The position numbers were made by a program, and so were the translations under genes. DNA of 64,000 nucleotides from Vulcanimicrobiota bacterium (GTDB lineage Bacteria; Vulcanimicrobiota; Xenobia; Xenobiales; JADMJV01). Shown here in pieces: positions 1 to 48,618 of this stretch. Below the pieces are notes generated by a model that was not told the origin of the DNA, searched no databases, and saw only the letters and a list, made by a program, of their open reading frames with translations. Numbering within the stretch: the stretch's first letter is position 1; each line of letters opens with the position of its first letter. The stretch lies in NCBI GenBank assembly GCA_050250895.1, contig JBFWNU010000004.1, forward strand, positions 238,934 through 302,933, in the 5' to 3' direction.

Positions 1-402
1 GGGAGGCGCGTGGGGCGACGGCGTGGCGGGCTCATCGATACCCGTCGGGGCGCTCTGTCGAAGTGCAGTTGGCGTGGCTCGCCAGGGGGCGCTTGGGGGA
101 TGAACACGGAGATCAGGAGGGCACGGAGAGGGTCGCGCGGGGCCTGGGGTGGGCTCTCGGTCGTGGACACCGCCGAGGCGCCGAGACGCAGAGGTTGTAG
201 GGGTTGCTGGGCGGGGGCCTCTTTGATGATCGGTGGCCTGTCGTGAGACGGCTTGAGGGTTTGGGGGGAGGCGCGTGGGGCGACGGCGTGGCGGGCTCAT
301 CGATACCCGTCGGGGCGCTCTGTCGAAGTGCAGTTGGCGTGGCTCGCCAGGGGGCGCTTGGGGGATGAACACGGAGATCAGGAGGGCACGGAAAGGGTCG
401 CG
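1..402. repeat. ~137-bp direct repeat, two copies (1-137 and 266-402), period 265 bp
   Basis: GGGAGGCGCGTGGGGCGACG...GATCAGGAGGGCACGGA(G/A)AGGGTCGCG is repeated almost identically. The first copy may be cut by the window edge. Confidence 0.9.
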
Positions 403-408
403 GGGCCG

Positions 409-892
409 GCCGACTTCCGCACGGAAGAGCATCCTCGGCCGAGTACGGCGCTACCACGTGCCGAATCCGGCACCACCTGGTGCCGTACCGCCGCCGGCCA
501 GCCTGGGTAGCTCGGCGACGGTCGCGGGGCAAGCCGACTTTTGCACGGAAGAGCAACCTCGCCCGAGTACGGCGCTACCACGTGCCGAATCCGGCACCAC
601 CTGGTGCCCTACCGCCGCCGGCAGCCTGGGTGGCTCGACCACGGTCGCGGGCAAGCCGACTTCCGCACGGAAGAGCAACCTCGGCCGAGTACGGCGCTGC
701 CACGTGCCGAATCCGGCACCACCTGGTGCCGTACCGCCGCCGGCCAGCCTGGGTAGCTCGACCATGGTCGCGGGGCAAGCCGGCTTCCGCACGGAACAGG
801 CGAACAGGCGCGGCGCGTGGTCGAAGCAAGAACTGAAGAGCCGGCTTGTTTGCGGCGACCTGCAGCGACTCAAGCTTCCGTGCGGAAGTGGC
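409..892. repeat. Tandem ~123-bp REP/BIME-like repeat (3 copies plus a partial) with an inverted partial copy
   Basis: Units start at 409, 533, 655 and 779 with GCCGACTTCCGCACGGAAG, which contains the palindrome CTTCCG-CA-CGGAAG. The inverted copy CTTCCGTGCGGAAGTGGC lies at ~875-892. Confidence 0.85.
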
Positions 893-1119
893 CTGTCGCC
901 TGGCCGATCTCAAGCGTACCGGCCTCAACTATAGAAATCGCGAGAGAGCCAGACACCAGTTTGCGCCCACCGCGTCAAGACCCTCGGCGCCTGATAGGCG
1001 GCTTCACTGAAGAGCGCCAAACCTTGCAGCCCCCATGCACGGCCAAATCGGTAACAGAACGGTTACATGTTTTCGGCTCGACCAACCTGGCGACAATCCG
1101 TAACGGCTAGACTGGAGTC

Positions 1120-2418
1120 GTGCAGCTTGGCCCTCTCGATCGACCGACCCCTCGCGCGCTGGCCTTTGCGGCCGGGCTAACGCCGCGCCCGCCGGTGGTA
1201 GTCGAGGGAGAGGATCAGGCTTTGCCCAGCGGCCCCCTGGACCAGGTGGCCGTGGTGCACGCCGATGCCCACCTGATCAGCCACCAGAGCACTCCCGCCA
1301 TCGAGCAGGCCGCCCGGCAACTACAGCCCGGCGGCGCTTTGATGGTCACCACCGGCCGTGGCTTGATGGGTGATCTTGATGCCTTTCAAGAGCGGATGGA
1401 CAGTCTGGGCTTTCACACCATGGGCGTGATCTTCCAAGAGAAAGCCTATGTGGTGGCCGAGAAAGATGTGCTGCCCGGGCTGGGCTCGGTCTCGCCCGAG
1501 CAATCGCGCTTACTGCTGGCCCGCACCCAATTCGCCGGCCAACCCGATGCCCACCGACAGATTGAAGCGGCCGGGCTGGCCCCGCGCTTCACCACCAGCT
1601 TCGAGGGCCGGCGCGTGCACCTTTCGCGACCTTTCCGCTGCCGGGGTTACCAGGCGACTCTGGGTTATGTCGAAGGTAAAGACGGCAGTCTGAAAGCCCG
1701 CCTGTTCTACCAGAGCAAATCGCAGGGCCTGTGGCGCTCGGCCTCGGGCCTCCTGGGGCAGGTGCTGGGCAAAGGCCCGGAGGGGCAGTTTGAATCCTCG
1801 ACCACCCTGCCGGCGAGCCTACAGAAGACCCTCAACGGCCTGACCACCGCCGTGCCCCCCGTCGAGGGCGAGCAAGAGGTCGCTTTTCATGCCCCTCTAG
1901 AGAAGCTTGCTCTCAAAGGCGGGGGACAATTCGACCACGAGTTGACGGCCGTCCACTTTGGCCACTTCGCCAGCGATCGTCCCGACTCGTTTGTCTATGC
2001 CCGGCCCGAACTGGCGCCCGATTTCTCGAAGGTGCGCGACCAATTCACCCTGGAGCACCCCAGCCGCGGCCAACTGCACGCTTACGTGGTGGATTCCCAA
2101 GACGAGAGCGCCCGCTATCTCTTCTTGCGCGACTCGGACCAGCGAGCCTGGCTGGGCTCGGTGGAAGCCCGCACCGAGGTCAACTCCTTTATGGTCCCGT
2201 CTCAGGCCTATCGCCTGGGAGCCCTGACGCATCCCGCCATCGAATACGTCCAGCAGGTGCCGCCTGAGTATCGTGGCGAGACGGTGGTCAAAGAACAGGT
2301 CTACAACCACTTCACCAAGGCATACGAAGAGTTGCCGACCTATGTCGACGCCACCTCGTTCGTCTATCAACTCCCCCCGGTGCGCGACTTCCAGTCGTGG
2401 CAAGCAGCCAGACGGTAG
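1120..2418 (+). CDS. Hypothetical protein, 432 aa
   Basis: Long ORF with GC-rich codon usage. TAGACT -10-like hexamer 6 nt before the GTG. No confident family. Confidence 0.75.
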   Translation: MQLGPLDRPTPRALAFAAGLTPRPPVVVEGEDQALPSGPLDQVAVVHADAHLISHQSTPAIEQAARQLQPGGALMVTTGRGLMGDLDAFQERMDSLGFHTMGVIFQEKAYVVAEKDVLPGLGSVSPEQSRLLLARTQFAGQPDAHRQIEAAGLAPRFTTSFEGRRVHLSRPFRCRGYQATLGYVEGKDGSLKARLFYQSKSQGLWRSASGLLGQVLGKGPEGQFESSTTLPASLQKTLNGLTTAVPPVEGEQEVAFHAPLEKLALKGGGQFDHELTAVHFGHFASDRPDSFVYARPELAPDFSKVRDQFTLEHPSRGQLHAYVVDSQDESARYLFLRDSDQRAWLGSVEARTEVNSFMVPSQAYRLGALTHPAIEYVQQVPPEYRGETVVKEQVYNHFTKAYEELPTYVDATSFVYQLPPVRDFQSWQAARR

Positions 2419-2447
2419 TCGCGGCGGAAGCCGTCGCCAAAGCCCAA

Positions 2448-3578
2448 TTAGAGCCCGATGAACTCGGGACTGCCTAGAAGCTGCAAGCCAAAGTCGCGCT
2501 CGATGGCCAGGGGTAGAAGCGGATGCATGCCGAGATAGGGCAGTTGGAACAGAACCCGCTCGAGCATGGTGCCGGGGCGCAGGCAGCGAGTGCCGGTGAC
2601 ACTGCGGATGCCGTCGGCCACCAGGTTACAGACCCGAGTGGTGTGATACTTGATGGCCGAGCTGAAATCGAGCAGGGGCAGCACCAGCGACATGTCGACC
2701 GGTCCCAGGCGTTGACCCAATCGCCGCACCAGGTTGACGGCGCTACGGTGCTCGAGGACAAGGCGGCCCATGCGGGCCACGTTGCTGTCGAGATGAGCCG
2801 AAGGGCCGCCGTGGGGGCCGGGAATGTCGTAGAGAATCTGGCGGGCCTCTTCGAGGGCGCGCGCAGCGGCGCCGAGATAGGCCGCCGAAACCAGGCCCTG
2901 AAACCAGGCCGTTTGATAGTGGAGCAGGTCCCAGGTCTGCTGATGGTCCGCAATGATGGGTGCCCCCAGGCGCAGGCCGTCGAAGGTCAGTCGGCGAGTG
3001 TCGGTGTGGTCCATCGGCCAGGCGAAGACCGCCTCCCCCACTTTGAGGGCCTCCTGGCCCTTGAGCGGAGACAGGAAGTAGGCGGTGGCCCCGTCGGGGG
3101 TCTCAGCCGCAAAAGCCAGCAAGTCGGCCTGGCGGGCCTGGCTCTGGAAGAGCGCGCCACCGTTGGCCACGAAGCCTTTGTCGGCCGCCTCGATCTGCAC
3201 GCCGGCCCGAGAGCCATCGTCGATGTCCGAGCCGAAGGTCGAGACGGTGATCAACAGCTTATGCTTGGCGAAGTCGGCCACGATGCGGTCCCGCTTCTTG
3301 AGCAGTGGATGCCCGTCTTCGAAGGGCGCCAGGGCCAGGCTGCTGATGACATAAAGATGCTGGGCCAGAGCCACGGTCAGCGGGAGGGAGGCGCGGGCCA
3401 GGATATAGACACACTCGAAGGTCTGCTCGAACACCGCCGCGGGCCGCCCCCCGTGGCAGCAAAGATAGGGAATACCGGTGTCGCGAATCCCGTCATAGTA
3501 GACCTGCGGCTGGTCGGCGTAGTTGGTCTCGTCGATGAGCCGGGCGAATTCGTGGGCCGGCTGGCGATAGGGTTTCAC
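2448..3578 (-). CDS. Acyl-CoA dehydrogenase-fold flavoprotein (candidate group D flavin monooxygenase / N-hydroxylase)
   Basis: ACAD-like motifs ALAQHLY, GFVANGGALFQS, MDHTDTRRLTFDG, AAYLGAAARALEEA. The GTG at 3578 overlaps the upstream TGA (GTGA), so the ORF-track start at 3827 is spurious. Confidence 0.8.
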   Translation of the reverse strand: MKPYRQPAHEFARLIDETNYADQPQVYYDGIRDTGIPYLCCHGGRPAAVFEQTFECVYILARASLPLTVALAQHLYVISSLALAPFEDGHPLLKKRDRIVADFAKHKLLITVSTFGSDIDDGSRAGVQIEAADKGFVANGGALFQSQARQADLLAFAAETPDGATAYFLSPLKGQEALKVGEAVFAWPMDHTDTRRLTFDGLRLGAPIIADHQQTWDLLHYQTAWFQGLVSAAYLGAAARALEEARQILYDIPGPHGGPSAHLDSNVARMGRLVLEHRSAVNLVRRLGQRLGPVDMSLVLPLLDFSSAIKYHTTRVCNLVADGIRSVTGTRCLRPGTMLERVLFQLPYLGMHPLLPLAIERDFGLQLLGSPEFIGL

Positions 3579-5581
3579 ACCAACACCGTCGGCCTGGGGA
3601 TGACCTCGCCCAATCCCACCAGGGGTTCTCCGGCCGGCAAGAACTGCAACTGGCTGTCCCACTCTCGCACCCGTCCGCGAAAGCCCAGGGCCTTCCAGAG
3701 GCGAGCCGAGGCATTGGGCATGATCGGCGCCATCATGATGGCCAGCGAGCGGGCCGCGGCCAATTCGAGGGCCAGCGCTCCGTTGCGCTCTTCCCCGGCG
3801 CCCTCGACCCCGTCGAGAAAGTCCCAAGAACTGCCGAAATCGGCCATCTCATGGACCCACTCGTTGAGCAGACGGGCCACCTTGCAGGGCGAGAAGGCCT
3901 CGCTCTCGTAGGCCGCCTCCACCTCATGGATGCGGCTCTGGAGATGCCGGTAGAGGTCGCTTTGTTCAGCATTGAGGCCGGTGGCTTGAGGTACCTGCCC
4001 CCCGGTGCGGGCCTCGAGGCGAGCCAGCCAGGCCTGCCAACCGTCAAAAAGCTCGCGCTGTTTGACGGCCGCGTAGTCTTCATGGCTAAACGAAGTCTTG
4101 CTCTGTTCGGGGCGGGTGTAGCACAGGTAGAAGCGCACCAGGTCGACCGGCTCGTGGGCCAGGAAATCGTCAACCCAGACCGCGTGTTGGCGACTGGTCG
4201 AGAACTTCGAACCGCCGAACTGGTAATGCTCGTTGGTGCAAAAGGCGTGGGGCAGCACGATCCGGTCCGAGACCGCCCGCATGACGGCCGGAAAGAGGAC
4301 CGTGTAGTAAAAAGCATTGTCGCAGCCGAAGAACTGCACAACTTCGGCCTCGGGATCATCCCAGAAATTCTTGGGCAACTGGTTGGTCTTGGCGATGACA
4401 TCAGCGGTGAACAGATAGCCCAGCACCATCTCGAGCCAGACCGAGATGATCTGGCCCGGAAACTGCTCGTCGGGCACCGGGATGCCCCAATCCGAGACGT
4501 GGGTGACCGGCGCGTCGGGCAAGCCTTTCGCCATCAGCTTCGAGACCACCGCGCGCAGCCGCAAGGGCAGCTTCATGGCGGCGTAATACTCCTCGAGTAT
4601 CGGGCGAGATTGTTCGAGAGGAAAATAGCAGCGCTTGACGGTGCGGGTCACGGGGGTCTGGTTGCACACCGAGCAGACCGGTTTGCCCAGGTCGGTGCAG
4701 TCGTTGGGCAGCCCGCACTCTTCGCAGCCGTTGCCCATGCAGTGGGTGCCGCAGTGGGGGCACGCTCCCATCACCCAGACTTCGTAGAGATGGCGCTGGC
4801 ATTGCTCGCAGTAAAGAGTGGGTGCCTCTTTGACCAACAATTTGCCGGTGCCCAGCAGCTTCTTGAAAACGGCCTGGACGAACTGGGTGTACTTCGGTGA
4901 CTTGCGCGGATAAAGAAACATCTCGAGGTCGACGCCCGCCTTCTTTAGCGTCGCCTCGACCGCCTGACCGAAATGGTCGGCCGTTTGCTCGGGAGTCTGG
5001 CCCAGCGTATTGGCCTTATCACAGGTATAGCTCTGGTGGTCGTCGGCCCCGCACAGATGGAAGGTGGGAACCCCCCGCAGGGCCGAGTAGCGGCGATAAA
5101 TGTCGGCGCCGAGATAGGGCCCCGAGAGGTGGCCCAGGTGCAACTTCCCGTTCGGGGTGGGAGGGGCGGAGATGACCAGACGACGCTTCGCCGAAGGGGG
5201 TTTGGAGCCCGACGCCCCGCCGTTGGCAGCGGCTCGCGCGGCCTTGAGCGTATCGTCGTCCCAATAGACCGAGAGAAAGACGAGCCGATTGTCGGGAGAG
5301 AGATTATGGATGGTGTGGGTGCTGGTAGCGGGCAAATAGACGACGTCGCCCACCCCGACTTTCGAGCGCTGGCCATCGATATCCATCTCGCCCTCGCCTT
5401 CGACGATGAAGAAGGTCTCGGGCAACTCGTGACTGTGGGGTTCGGTGTTGCCACCAGGCGACACTACCGCCCAGGTGGCCCCAAACGGCGTCTCGTCGAT
5501 CTCGGGCCAGGGATACATGTCCCGACACTTGACATTGTACTCGGAATGAAACTTTTCCAGGTCGAACTTGCGGACGAACAC
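3575..5581 (-). CDS. Cupin / methionyl-tRNA synthetase-like didomain protein (hydrazine synthetase family)
   Basis: N-terminal cupin (HSHELPETFFIVEG...HTIHN), a linker, then a class I aaRS-like domain: PTPNGKLHLGHLSGPYLGAD (HIGH), CxxC zinc knuckles, KFSTS (KMSKS equivalent). Confidence 0.88.
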   Translation of the reverse strand: MFVRKFDLEKFHSEYNVKCRDMYPWPEIDETPFGATWAVVSPGGNTEPHSHELPETFFIVEGEGEMDIDGQRSKVGVGDVVYLPATSTHTIHNLSPDNRLVFLSVYWDDDTLKAARAAANGGASGSKPPSAKRRLVISAPPTPNGKLHLGHLSGPYLGADIYRRYSALRGVPTFHLCGADDHQSYTCDKANTLGQTPEQTADHFGQAVEATLKKAGVDLEMFLYPRKSPKYTQFVQAVFKKLLGTGKLLVKEAPTLYCEQCQRHLYEVWVMGACPHCGTHCMGNGCEECGLPNDCTDLGKPVCSVCNQTPVTRTVKRCYFPLEQSRPILEEYYAAMKLPLRLRAVVSKLMAKGLPDAPVTHVSDWGIPVPDEQFPGQIISVWLEMVLGYLFTADVIAKTNQLPKNFWDDPEAEVVQFFGCDNAFYYTVLFPAVMRAVSDRIVLPHAFCTNEHYQFGGSKFSTSRQHAVWVDDFLAHEPVDLVRFYLCYTRPEQSKTSFSHEDYAAVKQRELFDGWQAWLARLEARTGGQVPQATGLNAEQSDLYRHLQSRIHEVEAAYESEAFSPCKVARLLNEWVHEMADFGSSWDFLDGVEGAGEERNGALALELAAARSLAIMMAPIMPNASARLWKALGFRGRVREWDSQLQFLPAGEPLVGLGEVIPRPTVLV

Positions 5582-5640
5582 TTGTGCCTCCTCGGGCTGT
5601 TGTTCTTCTTTCTAGCGCGAAAGGGAACCTGCCCTGAAGC

Positions 5641-6168
5641 TTACTCGGCCCGGGGGTCGGCAAGCTCCCGCCACAAAGGGTCTTCTAGCTTCTCGAGAGC
5701 CGAGCGGACGAATTCCTCGAGGTCGAGATCCTGGTCCAGGCTGTAAAGGGCTGCCTGGAGAGCCATGTCCAGTTTGTCCAGGGCCCGCACCAGGCGGGCT
5801 TCGCGGCTGGTGCCTTCGGCATACTCGTGCCAGGCCAATCGCAGTCGGCCGGCCTGGGGCAACCCCTCGGTCATGCGACGAAAGGCGCGTCGTTCCAGGA
5901 CCAGCTTCTCCTCGGGGTCAACCGCGTCGTGGGGGGTAAGATCGCCCACCCTCACTTCGGCGAGGTCGTGGACCACGGCCAGGCTGAGCGCCTTTTCGAG
6001 GTCGAGTTCGGGAGGGCAGAAATTGAGAACCAGCCAGGCCACGCCCCAACTATGAGAAGCCACCGCCTCGGGGCCCTGCACCCCCGCGCGCACCCAGCCA
6101 GCCCGAGGCAGCGCCTTGAGTCTAAGGGCCTCGAGCAAACGCTCTCGAACTCGCTGGTCATAGTTCAC
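5641..6168 (-). CDS. HD-domain phosphohydrolase (YfbR/HDDC2-like 5'-deoxynucleotidase)
   Basis: LKALPRAGW...EAVASHSW...VVHDLAE...GD...DKLDM. Start inferred at GTG 6168. Confidence 0.85.
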   Translation of the reverse strand: MNYDQRVRERLLEALRLKALPRAGWVRAGVQGPEAVASHSWGVAWLVLNFCPPELDLEKALSLAVVHDLAEVRVGDLTPHDAVDPEEKLVLERRAFRRMTEGLPQAGRLRLAWHEYAEGTSREARLVRALDKLDMALQAALYSLDQDLDLEEFVRSALEKLEDPLWRELADPRAE

Positions 6169-6229
6169 CAAGGCGAATTCCGCGCCCACCTCCCGAGGCC
6201 TTCCGAGGGGTGGCCGAGAAGGAGAGCCA

Positions 6230-7066
6230 ATGAAGCAAGCCATCAATGTTCCCCCCTTTGGTCCGGCCGCCAACCCGCGACTTCTGATGCAAATGGCTCG
6301 CGAGGCAGAAGCGGCCGGCTGGGACGGCTTCTTCGTCTGGGACCACATGAACTGGATGGACTGGGGCCCGGAGATAGCCGACCCCTGGGTTGTTCTGGGG
6401 GCGGTGGCTACCGTCACCGCGACCATACGTCTGGGCACGATGGTCACGCCGATGCCCCGTCGGGATCCAACCAAACTGGCCCGCGAGACGGTCACGCTCG
6501 ACCACCTCAGTGGCGGTCGCCTCACGCTCGGATTGGGCCTGGGAGCGCCGGATCCCGAAGAAAGCGCCGACCTTGGGCTACCGCTATCCTACAAGTTACG
6601 AGCTCGACGGGCCGAAGAGGGATACGAACTGTTGCGCAAACTGTGGTCGGGTCGACCGGTCACCCATCAAGGCGAGCACTACCGCCTCGACAGCCGGGGA
6701 TTTCTGCCTCGACCGCTGCAGGAGCCTACCATTCCGGTCTGGTGGGCGGCCATGCTGCCAGGGGGCCCGGGTCCCCTGGCCCGGGCGGCCCGGGCGGACG
6801 GGGTCGTGCCTTTGTGCCAGGCCAATCGTCCCCTCGAGATCGCAGAACTGCTCGAGGTGGCCCAAAAGGTGCGGGCCTTGCGGAAAGATGAAGACTTCGA
6901 CCTGGTGTATGGCTGCCGCACTGGTCAAGATCCCGAGGCCGACCGCCAGACCCTGAGGGCCCACGCGGCAGCCGGCGTCACCTGGTGGCTCGAGCCGCTC
7001 GACCCCTGGGCGGCCGACTTCGCCACCCACCACGCGCGCCTGCGCCAGGGGCCCACCCCACTATGA
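6230..7066 (+). CDS. LLM-class (luciferase-like) flavin-dependent oxidoreductase
   Basis: AEAAGWDGFFVWDH, DPWVVLGAVA, TLDHLSGGRLTLGLGLG; RBS GGAG upstream. Confidence 0.9.
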   Translation: MKQAINVPPFGPAANPRLLMQMAREAEAAGWDGFFVWDHMNWMDWGPEIADPWVVLGAVATVTATIRLGTMVTPMPRRDPTKLARETVTLDHLSGGRLTLGLGLGAPDPEESADLGLPLSYKLRARRAEEGYELLRKLWSGRPVTHQGEHYRLDSRGFLPRPLQEPTIPVWWAAMLPGGPGPLARAARADGVVPLCQANRPLEIAELLEVAQKVRALRKDEDFDLVYGCRTGQDPEADRQTLRAHAAAGVTWWLEPLDPWAADFATHHARLRQGPTPL

Positions 7067-7245
7067 GAGATTTGGCTTCCGTCCCGCTTCTTTATACGGA
7101 TATTCCGACACTTTCGGGGGCGGCCACACCTTTCAGATTCTGGAGTTGCGGCCGGGTGGTCGGCCCTCCAAACCCGGTCTAGTGCGCTGCGCGCCCGAGT
7201 TCCACGAGCTGGAATGAGAAGGACCGCAACCCGATCCTTCGAACC

Positions 7246-9414
7246 TTGCAGACAAGCATGCTTAGCTCTTTCCAACGGTCTGAAGTGGAGAGAATCCTCG
7301 ACCGGGTCGGTTACCCCCTGGCCGAACTGCGCTGGACCGGCATGCAAGAGTTCCCCTACTATCAGCGAGAGCTTGCCCCCAGCCGCTTGCCGACCGACAC
7401 TCAGGTGTGCTGGGACCCGGGCAGCGGCTACTATTTCGCCTTCCACACCACCGGGGTCGAGTGGCGAGGTGTCTTCTCGCCCTCGAAAGCTTTTGTGCGC
7501 GCCAGCTATGTGGTGGACAGCTGGCATTCTATCCCGGGCTTTCTCTACATCTGGGCCGAAGAGCTGGCCGAAGAACTCAAGACAGGGCCCACCTGGAAGG
7601 GAGCCGAGGATGCCAGTGGCGGGCGCAACCTGCTCAAGCGCAGCCAGCTCAACCTGGTGGGTCAGGCCCTGCAAGAGGCCGGGGTCGACCTCACCAAGCT
7701 CAAGTGCGTGACCACCGGGCCGGCCGTGATCTTCACCCACACCGACGAAAGCATGAAATTCAGCCTCACGAGCCCGACCTGGACCACCTTTTCGGGTCAA
7801 TATGCCCCTGGGGACCAGAGCTTTTCGGACCTCAACTGGGTCAAGGTGATCTATCAGTTTCAGCAATGGGGCAAGGCGGTTCGTGAGGAACTCGAACTGC
7901 GCGCCCTCTCGGCCGAGGAACGGGCCGAGCGCGAGCGTCAGAAGCGCCAGGAGGCCGAGCGCCTCGAGCGTGAAGAGCGAGAGCGCCGCGAACGCGAAGA
8001 AGCCGAGCGTCTCGAAAGGGAACGTCTCGAGCGCGAACAGCGCGAACGCGAAGAGGCCGAGCGACTCGAGCAAGAACGGCTCGAGCGCGAAGAATCCGAA
8101 AAATGGGAACGACTCGAAGCCCGCGTGCGCGAGTTGGAAGAGGCGCTCGCCGAAGCCCAGCAAGAGCGCGAGCGGCTCGAACAAGAACTGGCCGAGGTCC
8201 GGCAACGGTTGGCCGAGGAGGTGGCGCGCCGCCAGAACCTCGAGACCGAGTTCGACGAAGCCCGAGAGCAGTTGACCAACGAGCAAGAACGGGCCGACAA
8301 CGCCGAGGCCGAACTCGAGGCCCGGATTCAAGAGCTGGAACTCGAGCGCACTCGCCGCGAAAATTTCGAGGCCGAAGTGCCCCAACTGCGCCAGGATCTC
8401 AACGCGGCTCTGGAGGCTCGCCAACACCTGGAACAGCAACTCGAAGGGCATCGCCAGCGCGAGCAACTCGAGGCGTCGGCCCGCCAGCGCGAAGACCAGG
8501 ACGCTAAGAGCCGAACGGATTCGTTCCTCAACGACCTGTGGCGGCTGCGCGGCTTTCGCCTGGAAGGCATCCGCGGCTTGAGGGTAGTCGAGCACCGGCT
8601 GGCCGAGCAGCCCCGCTCGCTGGCGCTGCTGGCAGGCGATAACGGCACCGGCAAAACCTCGGCCCTGGTGGCCCTGGCGGTAGGTCTCTCTCAGGTCGGC
8701 GAAGCCCACACCATCTTACGCACGCCGGCCGCGGCCGGGCTCATACCAGAGGGGCAAGACGAGGCCGGTATCGTGCTCGAGTTCGAAGGGCCGGAAGGCC
8801 GAGTCGAATATTGTCGCACCAGCCTGGGTCTCAACAGCCGGGGCGAGCAGATCGTGCTCGAGAAGGATCCCGGCCCCGACCTGCTGGTGGTCGGCTTCGG
8901 CTCGGCCCGGGCCGCTGGCAGTCTAGCCCTTCCCAACGCCTACTCGGTATTGGCCGGATGCCGCACCTTGCTCGGCTTTGACCCGCGCCTGGCGGATACC
9001 GAGCAAGTGCTGCGTCGCCTGCGCCTGAAAATGGGCGCAGCCGACTTCGCCCCGATCCTGACCCAACTGGCGTCGTTGCTGCCGGTCGAGGGCCTCAAGC
9101 TCGAACTCGACGAGCACGGCCTCTGGGTCGAGCAAGGCACAAGACTGCCGGTCAGTCGCTGGTCGAACGGTCTGCGCGGAGTGCTGGCCTGGGTGGCCGA
9201 ACTGATCGGCTGGGCCATCCTGAGCGGACGCCTCGAGGACGATCTCAACGCGGTGTTGCTGCTTGACGAAGCCGACCTGCACCTGCAGGCCCCGCTTCAG
9301 GCTCGCCTACTGGGCGGTCTCTGCCAGGGCCTGCCCGGGTTGCAGGTAGTGGCCACCAGCCTCTCGGCCAATGTGTCTCGCTCGGTCATGCCCGAGGAAC
9401 TGGTGCAGCTCTAG
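7246..9414 (+). CDS. Unknown N-terminal domains + E/R-rich coiled coil + C-terminal ABC/AAA_21-type ATPase
   Basis: Walker A GDNGTGKT, signature-like WSNG, Walker B LLLDEADLHL, and a long ER/K helix. Start uncertain (TTG). Confidence 0.8.
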   Translation: MQTSMLSSFQRSEVERILDRVGYPLAELRWTGMQEFPYYQRELAPSRLPTDTQVCWDPGSGYYFAFHTTGVEWRGVFSPSKAFVRASYVVDSWHSIPGFLYIWAEELAEELKTGPTWKGAEDASGGRNLLKRSQLNLVGQALQEAGVDLTKLKCVTTGPAVIFTHTDESMKFSLTSPTWTTFSGQYAPGDQSFSDLNWVKVIYQFQQWGKAVREELELRALSAEERAERERQKRQEAERLEREERERREREEAERLERERLEREQREREEAERLEQERLEREESEKWERLEARVRELEEALAEAQQERERLEQELAEVRQRLAEEVARRQNLETEFDEAREQLTNEQERADNAEAELEARIQELELERTRRENFEAEVPQLRQDLNAALEARQHLEQQLEGHRQREQLEASARQREDQDAKSRTDSFLNDLWRLRGFRLEGIRGLRVVEHRLAEQPRSLALLAGDNGTGKTSALVALAVGLSQVGEAHTILRTPAAAGLIPEGQDEAGIVLEFEGPEGRVEYCRTSLGLNSRGEQIVLEKDPGPDLLVVGFGSARAAGSLALPNAYSVLAGCRTLLGFDPRLADTEQVLRRLRLKMGAADFAPILTQLASLLPVEGLKLELDEHGLWVEQGTRLPVSRWSNGLRGVLAWVAELIGWAILSGRLEDDLNAVLLLDEADLHLQAPLQARLLGGLCQGLPGLQVVATSLSANVSRSVMPEELVQL

Positions 9415-47032: not shown

Positions 47033-47130
47033 AGTCCCAGCCTAGCACCGAGACATCTACATTCTTGAGGAAAGTGTCCGCAAAATGTCCACGAGGAAGG
47101 AGGCGGCAGTCTGCTTTGGAAGTGGCCAGA

Positions 47131-48618
47131 ATGTTCGCTCCTCCGGTCGATTTCAACCTTGCCCATCATCTTCTCGACGCACGGGTCGAAGAAGGCAACG
47201 GCCAGCGAACGGCCATCCGCACCGACCACACCACCTATACCTACGCCCAGGTGCAGGCTCGCGCCAACCGGCTGGCCGCGGCCCTGGTGGAGGCCGGGCT
47301 GGCTCAAGAGCAACGCGTCATTCTGGCCCTTCCTGATGGCCTCGATTTCGTGGCCGGGCTGTTTGCCATCCTCAAGGCCGGGGGGGTGGTGGTCATGATC
47401 AACCCCGACCTGCCAGTGGCCGACCTGGAATATTTCTTCGAGTATTCCCGGGCTCCCCTGGCCCTGGTCCACTCCGGCCAGCAAGAGACCTTCGCCTCGG
47501 CGGCCGCGAGGGCCCGTCTGCTGGCCGCCGATCAACTCCCGGGCGAAGCCGAGTTCGCCAATCGTAAAACCCACCGCGACGACCCCGCTTTATGGATCTT
47601 TAGCGGGGGAACCACCGGCAAGCCGAAGGCGGCCGTGCAATCGCATCGTTCCTTCGCCAACACCACTTTTCATTACGGCCAACAGTTTCTGGGGCTGGGG
47701 CCCGACGACGTCACCCTGGCCATCCCCAAGCTCTATTTCGGCTATGCCACCGGTCTCAATCTCTTCTTCCCCTTCTCGGTGGGGGCCAGCTGTTGTCTGT
47801 TCGAGCAGCCATCGACCCCCGAGGCCATCTTCGAGCGCATCGACCGCCATCGCCCCACGCTGCTGGTCAACGTGCCCAAAATCATCCACCGCATGGCGGC
47901 CCATCCCCAGGCCCAGCAACACGATCTCAGCTGTCTGCGGTTGTGCACCAGCGCTGGCGAGGCTCTGCCTCCGGCCCTCTATAGCCTCTGGGTCGACACC
48001 TTCGGAGTCGAACTGGTCGACGGCCTGGGCACGGCCGAAATGTGGCATATCTTTCTCTCCAACAAGCCGGGACAGGTAAAGCCCGGTACCCTGGGCCAGG
48101 CCGTGCCAGGCTTTACCATCAAGCTCGCCGACGACGAGGGCGTGCCCGTGCCCCGAGGCGAGCTGGGCCGGCTCTGGGTCCGGGGCGATTCGCGGGCCAT
48201 CTGCTATTGGCAGCGGGCCGAAGAGAGCCACGAGGCCTTTCGTGGGCCGTGGTTTGCCTCGGGCGACAAGCTCTATGAAGACGAAGACGGCTATTTCGTC
48301 TATTGCGGCCGGGGCGACGACATGATGAAAGTGGGGGGCAAGTGGCTGGCTCCCCTCGAGGTCGAAGACTGCCTCTTGCGCCACCCAGCCGTGCGCGAGT
48401 GCGCCGTCGTGCCCGAAATCGACGAGGCCGGGCTCACCAAGCCCAAGGCCTTTGTGCTGGCCGCCGAAAACAGCGAGGGGCTGGCCGAAGAACTCAAGGC
48501 CCACACTCTCGAGCATCTCGAAGCCTACAAGCACCCCCGCTCGATCGTTTTTGTCGACGAGATGCCGCGGACCCACCTGGGCAAGATCGACAGGGCCCGG
48601 CTCAAGGCGATGGCATGA
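47131..48618 (+). CDS. Benzoate-CoA ligase family (ANL superfamily)
   Basis: FSGGTTGKPK, KLYFGYATG, SAGEALP, DGLGTAE, GRGDDMMKVGG. Confidence 0.88.
   Translation: MFAPPVDFNLAHHLLDARVEEGNGQRTAIRTDHTTYTYAQVQARANRLAAALVEAGLAQEQRVILALPDGLDFVAGLFAILKAGGVVVMINPDLPVADLEYFFEYSRAPLALVHSGQQETFASAAARARLLAADQLPGEAEFANRKTHRDDPALWIFSGGTTGKPKAAVQSHRSFANTTFHYGQQFLGLGPDDVTLAIPKLYFGYATGLNLFFPFSVGASCCLFEQPSTPEAIFERIDRHRPTLLVNVPKIIHRMAAHPQAQQHDLSCLRLCTSAGEALPPALYSLWVDTFGVELVDGLGTAEMWHIFLSNKPGQVKPGTLGQAVPGFTIKLADDEGVPVPRGELGRLWVRGDSRAICYWQRAEESHEAFRGPWFASGDKLYEDEDGYFVYCGRGDDMMKVGGKWLAPLEVEDCLLRHPAVRECAVVPEIDEAGLTKPKAFVLAAENSEGLAEELKAHTLEHLEAYKHPRSIVFVDEMPRTHLGKIDRARLKAMA

Follow-up and report, generated by a model that had tools for sequence, protein, structure and literature searches.

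What supplies a hydrazine synthetase (HS) with its hydroxylamine when no N-hydroxylase of the usual kind is encoded beside it? This question is raised by a stretch of 64,000 nucleotides of Vulcanimicrobiota DNA, here called the window (G000:C4:238934-302933; the host genome, G000, comprises 9.5 Mb in 17 contigs), in which the gene for an HS homologue overlaps the gene for a divergent flavoprotein with the fold of acyl-CoA dehydrogenases (ACADs). The two genes span 3.1 kb (Table 1), and their pairing recurs in related soil bacteria. In the systems for s56-p1 (Spb38-40), triacsin (Tri26-28) and azaserine (AzsL-N), an HS is accompanied by a class B lysine N6-hydroxylase and a DAO-type oxidase containing flavin adenine dinucleotide (FAD). 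We consider the chances about even that, in the window, the ACAD-like protein is the N-hydroxylase feeding the HS, in place of a class B lysine or ornithine N-hydroxylase. This reading of the sequences is based on elimination, on the clade structure of the HSs and on the loss of the Glu that is typical of dehydrogenases.

Identity of the two encoded proteins

The preliminary description of this DNA had taken the larger product, a fusion of a cupin with a domain resembling methionyl-tRNA synthetase (MetRS), for an HS, and database comparisons uphold this assignment as against a housekeeping MetG. The protein matches the Pfam families Cupin_2 (E 9.8e-16) and tRNA-synt_1g (E 2.3e-79), and it stays below the cut-offs of all NCBIfam MetG equivalogs, the best score being 295 bits against 587 bits for NF001100. 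Among all PDB sequences its best match is PyrN-C, the adenylating portion of the HS for pyrazomycin (9l8v/9vq4; 271.5 bits over residues 135-633), which outscores every true MetRS, the top one being that of P. abyssi with 217.6 bits. A check for a separate housekeeping metG located this gene on contig C2 of the host genome (C2:370700-371800). By sequence, the didomain protein is an HS homologue, not MetG.

Individual residues were read through an alignment to PyrN-C against those named in 10.1101/2025.08.22.671884 (excerpts; the same word marks other sources available in part). The window HS shares with PyrN (PDB 9L8V, 9VQ4, 9VQJ, 9VR2) the HLGH motif (residues 148-151), a KFST core (KFSTS at residues 459-463, KFSTG in PyrN, KMSKS in true MetRSs), Q183 (Gln182 of PyrN), D421-N422 (Asp420-Asn421) and the eight Cys of two zinc knuckles; N144 is present as well. 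The MetG of the host genome has KMSKS, and Ile at the position of the Asn in D421-N422. The cupin residues H49, H51, E55 and H89 are kept in all 38 HS rows listed from the alignment, with gaps at these positions in MetG. The essential cupin Glu of AspHS is E54 (10.1101/2025.08.22.671884, excerpts), and E55 is, judged by position, its probable counterpart. The pocket code of the window HS, APDQWMNY (A139, P140, D180, Q183, W382, M385, N422, Y426), agrees at six of eight positions with TPDQWMNH, the code of AzsN, which corresponds to Spb40 residues listed in PMC12376268 (excerpts). TPDQWMNH was read as a glycine code because the AzsN and Spb40 enzymes make hydrazinoacetate, and the substrate of the window HS may be a small amino acid. 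Glutamate is not an expected substrate, since Arg390 and Arg425, which hold it in PyrN, correspond to Gly388 and Tyr426.

The fold of the smaller product cannot be read from a domain search, since this protein has no Pfam match at E ≤ 0.1; its sole NCBIfam match is PigA (E 0.035). The preliminary description had nevertheless assigned it to the ACAD fold, and relatives, profile and model agree with that claim. Relatives at 27-32% identity carry PF00441/PF08028, and others PF02770. A profile of 52 rows has its top matches to 5gj7/5z8t (one of these entries being titled 'flavin-containing monooxygenase'), DszC and KijD3 (E 1e-25 to 2e-22), with true ACADs trailing from 8e-22. The AlphaFold model (pLDDT 93.9) matches ACAD-fold structures with TM scores of 0.74-0.82, monooxygenases and dehydrogenases being mixed in the Foldseek ranks. 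According to the model, the protein has the three-domain ACAD fold. Its family is small, with 88 representative clusters at E ≤ 0.001 among 1.84 billion proteins.

In an alignment with three true ACADs of the host genome, their catalytic-Glu motif IYEGT/IYEGA corresponds to GMHP in the ACAD-like protein, and relatives have LHP or LQP at this place. The catalytic Glu of the (I/V)YEG(T/A) motif was not found, the alternative position used by enzymes of the long-chain acyl-CoA dehydrogenase and isovaleryl-CoA dehydrogenase (LCAD/IVD) type not having been examined. HMMER aligns H352-P353 with the LHDP motif of DszC, and S146 with the Ser of its FCSGA motif. Both the His of LHDP and the Ser of FCSGA are catalytically important in DszC. 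On sequence features, the resemblance is closer to an ACAD-fold monooxygenase than to a dehydrogenase. The monooxygenases DszC/TdsC, KijD3, DnmZ and ORF36 (group D) are among the top profile and fold matches, in the latter case mixed with dehydrogenases, and an L-H-x-P-like motif takes the place of the ACAD Glu motif. The identity to these enzymes is only 17-19%, and the protein is missed by all Pfam ACAD models.

Conservation of the gene pair in related genomes

A search with the ACAD-like protein gave 20 loci, nine from species-representative genomes and 11 from metagenomes. Six of these contain an HS gene (L009, L010, L020, L021, L024 and L028). At four others (L019, L022, L023 and L029) further genes of the cluster described below are present, and the sequence ends within about 1.2 kb of the expected HS site. 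Seven loci (L011-L016 and L026) fall into a clade of their own, and the remaining three (L017, L025 and L027) are fragments or hold no HS in their span. The metagenome scan had initially been run with the HS protein alone, which returned 16 pattern matches with no relative among them, and it was repeated with an alignment of ACAD-like proteins.

Seen from the HS, a cupin-bearing HS occurs in 16 of the 401 genomes of the phylum. Besides those of G000 and its sister genome G088, which is of the same genus, 14 such loci were fetched. Eight of them carry a full cluster and one carries a cluster that is cut at the contig end (L062), so that nine of the 14 hold an ACAD-like gene. At three loci (L063, L066 and L073) an HS and a DAO-type oxidase are encoded with no ACAD-like gene in the span, and at the last two (L074 and L075), which come from a different family within the phylum, the HS adjoins a class B N-hydroxylase instead. 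The HS genes of these two loci (G327:C1 and G273:C20) contain one in-frame TAG each, as does a MetRS-like match in G106.

The proposed phylogeny of HSs against true MetG was built from 73 rows, which included 19 HSs from the loci, P0014-P0061 and six others of 120 listed proteins, with the MetG of the host genome as outgroup; the duplicates L069 and P0013 were left out, and a quick LG+G4 tree was computed with support from the Shimodaira-Hasegawa-like approximate likelihood ratio test (SH-aLRT) only. MetG forms a long outgroup, apart from the HSs. All 14 ACAD-linked HSs fall into one clade with an SH-aLRT support of 100, together with three contig-cut cases and with P0014, P0015 and P0022. The N-hydroxylase-linked HSs lie outside this clade, including P0100, an HS-hydroxylase fusion of 1154 residues. 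Within the clade, the cluster type has as its sister group the HSs of the window and L009 together with P0014 and P0015. The tree of ACAD-like proteins (57 rows, fragments and duplicates left out) mirrors this split between window type and cluster type, with P0005, whose contig is as long as that of P0014, grouping with the window protein.

Among the 401 genomes, 14 have an HS of this clade, 16 have an ACAD-like gene and 13 have both, the count for the HS resting on the 17 of 20 clade rows that were placed by locus. The four exceptions are the genomes G104 (64% complete), G078 (75%), G094 (78%) and G110 (82%). The ACAD-like gene is absent from both genomes of the N-hydroxylase type. As the genomes concerned are close kin (families f1 and f3), these counts do not represent independent events. 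The neighbours of the pair differ between the window and L009/G088, which indicates that the pair moves as a two-gene unit. Taken together, clade structure, agreeing trees and co-occurrence in genomes answer the survey called for in the preliminary description: the pairing of HS and ACAD-like protein is conserved and co-evolving, not a matter of chance.

The labels of metagenome-assembled genomes (MAGs) were treated with caution in this survey, including that of L010 ('delta proteobacterium'). The HS coordinates of L009, which is labelled as an uncultured member of the Burkholderiales, are those of G088:C41; since G088 is of the genus of the host genome, L009 was not counted as another phylum, and its label is probably wrong. 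Candidatus Eremiobacteraeota is the label of the nearest named protein (94% identity), and most Atlas neighbours belong to the Vulcanimicrobiota.

In the sister clade the pair is embedded in a larger cluster, which consists of a cupin_3 gene, the ACAD-like gene and a gene for a helical Zn-ribbon protein of about 290 residues, followed divergently by the HS gene and a gene for a DAO-type FAD oxidase (PF01266). In L010, the ACAD-like, cupin_3, HS and DAO genes lie in one stretch. The host genome of the window encodes a 501-residue fusion of a DAO-type FAD oxidase and an EutQ-like cupin_3 on contig C3 (L031:6549-8054), with a full-length counterpart of 56% identity in G088. In three cluster-bearing genomes (G074, G050 and G054), this fusion finds its best matches in precisely the DAO and cupin_3 genes of the clusters. 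The preliminary description had spoken of a minimal two-gene pathway. With the DAO-cupin_3 fusion at another locus of the host genome, and a cluster of four to five genes in the sister clade, this is only partly right: it is the pair itself that moves as a unit. A Lipase_3/thioesterase-like gene adjoins the fusion on C3.

The Zn-ribbon protein has a central CxxC...CxxC motif, is encoded directly upstream of the ACAD-like gene in the relatives and is duplicated in two genomes. Only paralogues of about 27% identity are found in the host genome of the window. It has no Pfam match, its Atlas matches lie below 0.9 and are all hypothetical proteins, and no PDB structure matches its model (pLDDT 82) at E ≤ 0.001, helical bundles with TM scores of at most 0.3 being the only similarities. 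It shows no kinship to the open reading frame (ORF) upstream of the C6 paralogue described below or to that upstream of the ACAD-like gene of L010.

The wider ACAD-like family includes members that are not encoded with an HS. One is a paralogue in the host genome (G000:C6:267688-268893; L030:9689-10897), which has a counterpart in G088 and is 40% identical to the window protein and 40-43% identical to the cluster type; its gene is followed by genes of the DHDPS family, for EPSP synthase and for shikimate dehydrogenase. A separate clade occurs in MAGs labelled Acidobacteriota (L011, L012, L014 and L026). In the loci of this clade that were scanned, the ACAD-like gene is accompanied by genes for non-ribosomal peptide synthetases (NRPSs) in L011 and L012 and only by an ABC transporter in L014, and it lies between two carbamoyltransferase genes in L026. 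P0135 (810 residues) was considered as a possible fusion to a further domain, but it consists of two tandem copies of the type found in NRPS contexts. Fused ACAD-like/HS proteins were not found among the longer proteins, which is weak evidence.

Candidate source of the hydroxylamine

The preliminary description had stated that the 64 kb contain no lysine or ornithine N-hydroxylase, no NRPS and no polyketide synthase (PKS), and this is true for the families searched. A class B flavin N-hydroxylase (PF13434) was not found among the neighbours of the HS in the window, and neither NRPS (PF00668) nor PKS (PF00109) domains were found in the 64 kb, the nearest matches lying at C4:205260, about 34 kb before the window, and at C4:373260, about 70 kb after it. 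The suggested search of the whole genome for an N-hydroxylase yielded a single PF13434 match, a partial one of 22 bits on contig C1. Indeed, a true PF13434 enzyme was not found in any of five ACAD-linked genomes (G000, G088, G074, G050 and G054), which gave only partial matches of 20-27 bits, as most control genomes also do; the control genome G327 gave four matches of 280-335 bits, one of them adjoining its HS. No PP-binding or acyltransferase genes are present among the neighbours in the window, L009, L010, L020 and L024, and the pair is not accompanied by NRPS, PKS or ligase genes.

The only redox enzymes of the full clusters are the ACAD-like protein and the DAO-type oxidase. For the latter a role is documented: Tri27, which is of the DAO type, cleaves N6-(carboxymethylamino)lysine to give hydrazinoacetate (10.1101/2021.05.12.443849, excerpts). 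The cupin_3 was considered as a metal oxygenase and set aside, as it has no conserved His triad, and the Zn-ribbon protein is not recognisable as an oxygenase or reductase, having no match to a family or an enzyme-like fold. This leaves the ACAD-like protein as the sole candidate oxygenase of the cluster. It is therefore the only unassigned redox enzyme, and N-hydroxylation is the only missing activity.

The pathway might then proceed as follows. The ACAD-like protein, using reduced flavin from a free-standing reductase and O2, would hydroxylate the nitrogen of a primary amine, for which the side chain of a diamino acid is the likeliest candidate. The steps of the HS are deduced from its homologues PyrN, Spb40 and Tri28: its MetRS-like domain would adenylate a small amino acid and pass it to the N-OH oxygen, after which the zinc cupin would rearrange the O-aminoacyl-hydroxylamine to a hydrazine. 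Lastly, to judge from the relatives, a free hydrazino acid may be set free when the conjugate is cleaved by the DAO-cupin_3 fusion encoded on C3. The suggested search for flavin reductases gave four PF01613 genes elsewhere in the host genome and none in the window. ACAD-fold two-component monooxygenases often borrow unlinked reductases.

Several observations speak against the ACAD-like protein being the hydroxylase, beginning with the missing flavin reductase at the locus. PF13434 is the sole N-hydroxylase family covered by the search, so that a P450, a diiron enzyme or another N-oxygenase may be encoded elsewhere in the genome. P0005 and P0133, the next-closest relatives of the window protein, have Gln where the His aligned with LHDP would stand, and this His is thus not essential across the family. 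Ordinary ACADs score nearly as well in Foldseek and in the profile search, and the fold alone can therefore not separate an oxygenase from a dehydrogenase. The C6 paralogue has no HS beside it. More distant members of the family sit in NRPS clusters, where they are as plausible as dehydrogenases of carrier-bound substrates as they are as hydroxylases. Finally, the co-occurrence is limited to two related families of one phylum and a few MAG or metagenome contigs.

The strongest competitor of the hydroxylase reading is a function after the HS. The ACAD-like protein would then oxidise the hydrazine at the C-N or N-N bond to a hydrazone, azo or diazo product, and some enzyme not yet recognised, encoded elsewhere, would have to provide the hydroxylamine. 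There is a precedent in Tri22, a FAD-containing ACAD homologue that oxidises succinyl-hydrazinoacetate bound to an acyl carrier protein (ACP) to a hydrazone (10.1101/2021.05.12.443849, excerpts), and in AzsF of the azaserine cluster, which is 65.9% identical to Tri22 (PMC10445470, excerpts). The nearly equal fold matches of ordinary ACADs and the Gln of P0005 and P0133 are also compatible with it. However, neither a carrier protein nor a loading enzyme was found in the neighbourhoods scanned, the catalytic Glu motif of ACADs is missing, and a downstream function would leave the HS with no source of hydroxylamine, a true PF13434 enzyme having been found in none of the five ACAD-linked genomes searched. 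Oxidation after the HS is already provided for in the full clusters by the DAO-type oxidase, and a swap of the upstream partner would be expected to give just such a clean separation of the HSs into ACAD-linked and N-hydroxylase-linked clades. We regard a downstream function as unlikely.

Somewhat less probable still is that the ACAD-like protein modifies the HS substrate in another way before coupling, for example by desaturation or oxidation of the amino acid, or that the nucleophile of the HS is not an N-hydroxy amino acid and the product no classical hydrazine. Such a departure could account for the differences between the HS types (KFSTS in the window type against KMSTS in the cluster type, with pocket codes APDQWMNY and SPDQW[AILMV]NY), for the alignment of Glu284 of PyrN, named as a hydroxylamine-binding residue, with Gly285 of the window HS, and for the conservation of a Zn-ribbon protein and a cupin_3 with no assigned role. 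Position 285 is, however, variable in canonical HSs too, and the residues holding the alpha-amino and carboxyl groups (Q183, D421, N422), N144, which contacts the N-OH group in PyrN, and the catalytic set of the cupin are all conserved; the DAO partner likewise fits the classical logic of hydrazine cleavage. That the adjacency has no functional meaning, or that the didomain protein is a spare MetRS, is highly improbable: the window does hold no other conserved neighbours of the pair, but the MetG score of 295 against 587 bits, KFSTS for KMSKS, the existing housekeeping metG, the start/stop overlap, the clade structure and the genome co-occurrence all contradict it.

Relation to known pathways and features of the locus

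With the systems Spb38-40, Tri26-28 and AzsL-N, the window shares the architecture and motifs of the HS and the similarity of its pocket code, and its relatives share a DAO-type oxidase adjoining the HS, to which the DAO-cupin_3 fusion of the host genome corresponds. In contrast to these systems, a class B N-hydroxylase was not detected and an ACAD-fold flavoprotein is the constant partner, the DAO gene of the host genome lies on another contig, and downstream NRPS, PKS or ligase genes are lacking. PyrN, too, works with a class B hydroxylase, PyrM (PMC11705231, excerpts), whereas the window HS is paired with the ACAD-like protein. An ACAD-superfamily flavoprotein encoded alongside an HS is something that the window has in common with Tri22 and AzsF, so that ACAD homologues in HS clusters are not unprecedented. 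By their description, Tri22 and AzsF act after the HS on an ACP-bound hydrazine and next to a class B hydroxylase (sources as above, excerpts); neither a carrier protein nor such a hydroxylase was seen here.

VlmH of the valanimycin pathway has an ACAD fold. Precedents for N-hydroxylases of this fold in N-N bond formation are VlmH/VlmR and, as a hypothesis, AlaD/AlnG (PMC11705231, excerpts). VlmH/VlmR N-hydroxylates isobutylamine, a seryl group is transferred by VlmL/VlmA, and VlmO performs the rearrangement, so that the proposed logic, from a two-component flavin N-hydroxylase via an O-aminoacyl-hydroxylamine to a hydrazine, is like that suggested for the window pair (PMC11705231, excerpts). 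Unlike the window pair, the valanimycin pathway employs a tRNA-dependent transferase and a membrane protein and no HS didomain, VlmH having been compared by description. The same type of comparison sets AlaD/AlnG apart, which belong to the nitrosohydroxylamine pathway of alanosine, lack an HS and are only hypothesised to be an N-hydroxylase.

No literature linking an HS to an ACAD-type hydroxylase was found; this search did not cover the survey of Matsuda et al. (401 HSs, 13 clades) and Supplementary Figs 34-36 of PMC13149037, in which the clade may appear uncommented. The available passages of PMC13149037 contain nothing further on the combination, and a review mentions hydrazine synthetase and acyl-CoA dehydrogenase, but unrelated to each other (PMC11705231, excerpts). 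Published mining for HSs demanded a neighbouring N-hydroxylase (10.1101/2025.08.22.671884, excerpts), a filter by which an ACAD-linked clade would be missed. By sequence, the ACAD-linked HSs appear to be a variant of the known HS system with a feeding route that we did not find described in the literature searched. The host lineage had been presented as one not known for this chemistry; while nothing from the phylum has been characterised in the literature searched, HSs are not rare in its families f1 and f3.

HSs are mined both as biocatalysts and as markers for natural products with N-N bonds. If the ACAD-like protein is the hydroxylase, it would represent a new enzyme class for making hydroxylamines, would probably open new amine donors for enzymatic hydrazine synthesis, and would mean that the upstream step of the HS pathway has been invented twice. 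More tentative, and in its entirety rather doubtful, is the combined proposition that the ACAD-fold protein is the first member of a new amine N-hydroxylase class that serves HSs specifically, that it constitutes a second, independently recruited N-N feeding route, that it forms with the HS a relocatable, self-contained two-gene unit in the genus, and that it acts on an amine beyond the lysine, ornithine and 2,4-diaminobutyrate (DABA) used by class B enzymes, leading to unseen hydrazines in the largely uncultured Vulcanimicrobiota/Eremiobacterota.

Table 1. Coordinates of the gene pair in the window and of Zn-ribbon protein genes in related loci.
Feature	Position	Strand	Basis
HS homologue, cupin + MetRS-like didomain, 668 residues	3575-5581	-	Pfam, MetG cut-offs, PDB match, HS tree
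Cupin domain of HS (residues 38-106; H49, H51, E55, H89)	5264-5470	-	Pfam Cupin_2
MetRS-like adenylating core of HS (residues 135-521)	4019-5179	-	Pfam tRNA-synt_1g; aligned to PyrN-C
Shine-Dalgarno-like GAGGAGG	5587-5593	-	read from sequence; 5-nt spacer to HS start
GTGA overlap, HS stop TGA / ACAD-like start GTG	3575-3578	-	read from sequence
Divergent ACAD-fold flavoprotein, 376 residues, candidate N-hydroxylase	2448-3578	-	profile, model, relatives' Pfam families
Zn-ribbon protein (about 290 residues), examples	L020:5082-5963; L064:3294-4121, 6373-7239; L067:2145-2987, 6350-7228; others		

The layout given for the pair in the preliminary description, a cupin-MetRS-like fusion overlapping an ACAD-fold gene through GTGA, agrees with the ORFs, the Pfam domains and the sequence. 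Positions 3580-3575 read GTGTGA, with the TGA stop of the HS gene at 3577-3575 and the GTG start of the ACAD-like gene at 3578-3576; the HS gene itself starts with GTG at 5581. The GC content at third codon positions is 0.80 in the HS frame and 0.76 in the ACAD-like frame, and the overall GC content of the window is about 63%. To judge from the sequence, the chances are about even that the HS and ACAD-like genes make up a translationally coupled module for N-N bond formation. An ORF on the opposite strand (2523-3911, +) was rejected as a real gene, having no family match and overlapping the 3' end of the HS gene by 336 nt, and is regarded as a shadow frame such as GC-rich DNA produces. A scan of positions 2000-7200 for promoters and terminators gave no promoter and one terminator-like site within the HS gene, which is under the shuffled expectation.

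Upstream of the HS gene and on the same strand, a gene for an HD_3/YfbR-like phosphohydrolase (5641-6525, -) ends at a distance of 59 nt. The first 134 or so residues of its product match no family, and the gene is not beside the pair in L009. An ORF of 219 codons at 275-934 (+) has dozens of matches in the host genome, spread over many contigs, with 45-95% identity in overlapping registers, and is probably a repeat family or a low-complexity repeat. The ORF at 7246-9414 (+; 722 codons) has no match in Pfam. Its product shares 77% identity over the first 209 residues with that of a gene on contig C7, and 40% identity over the C-terminal 300 residues with the continuation on C7. Lastly, the window encodes a stand-alone AMP-binding enzyme at 47035-48618.

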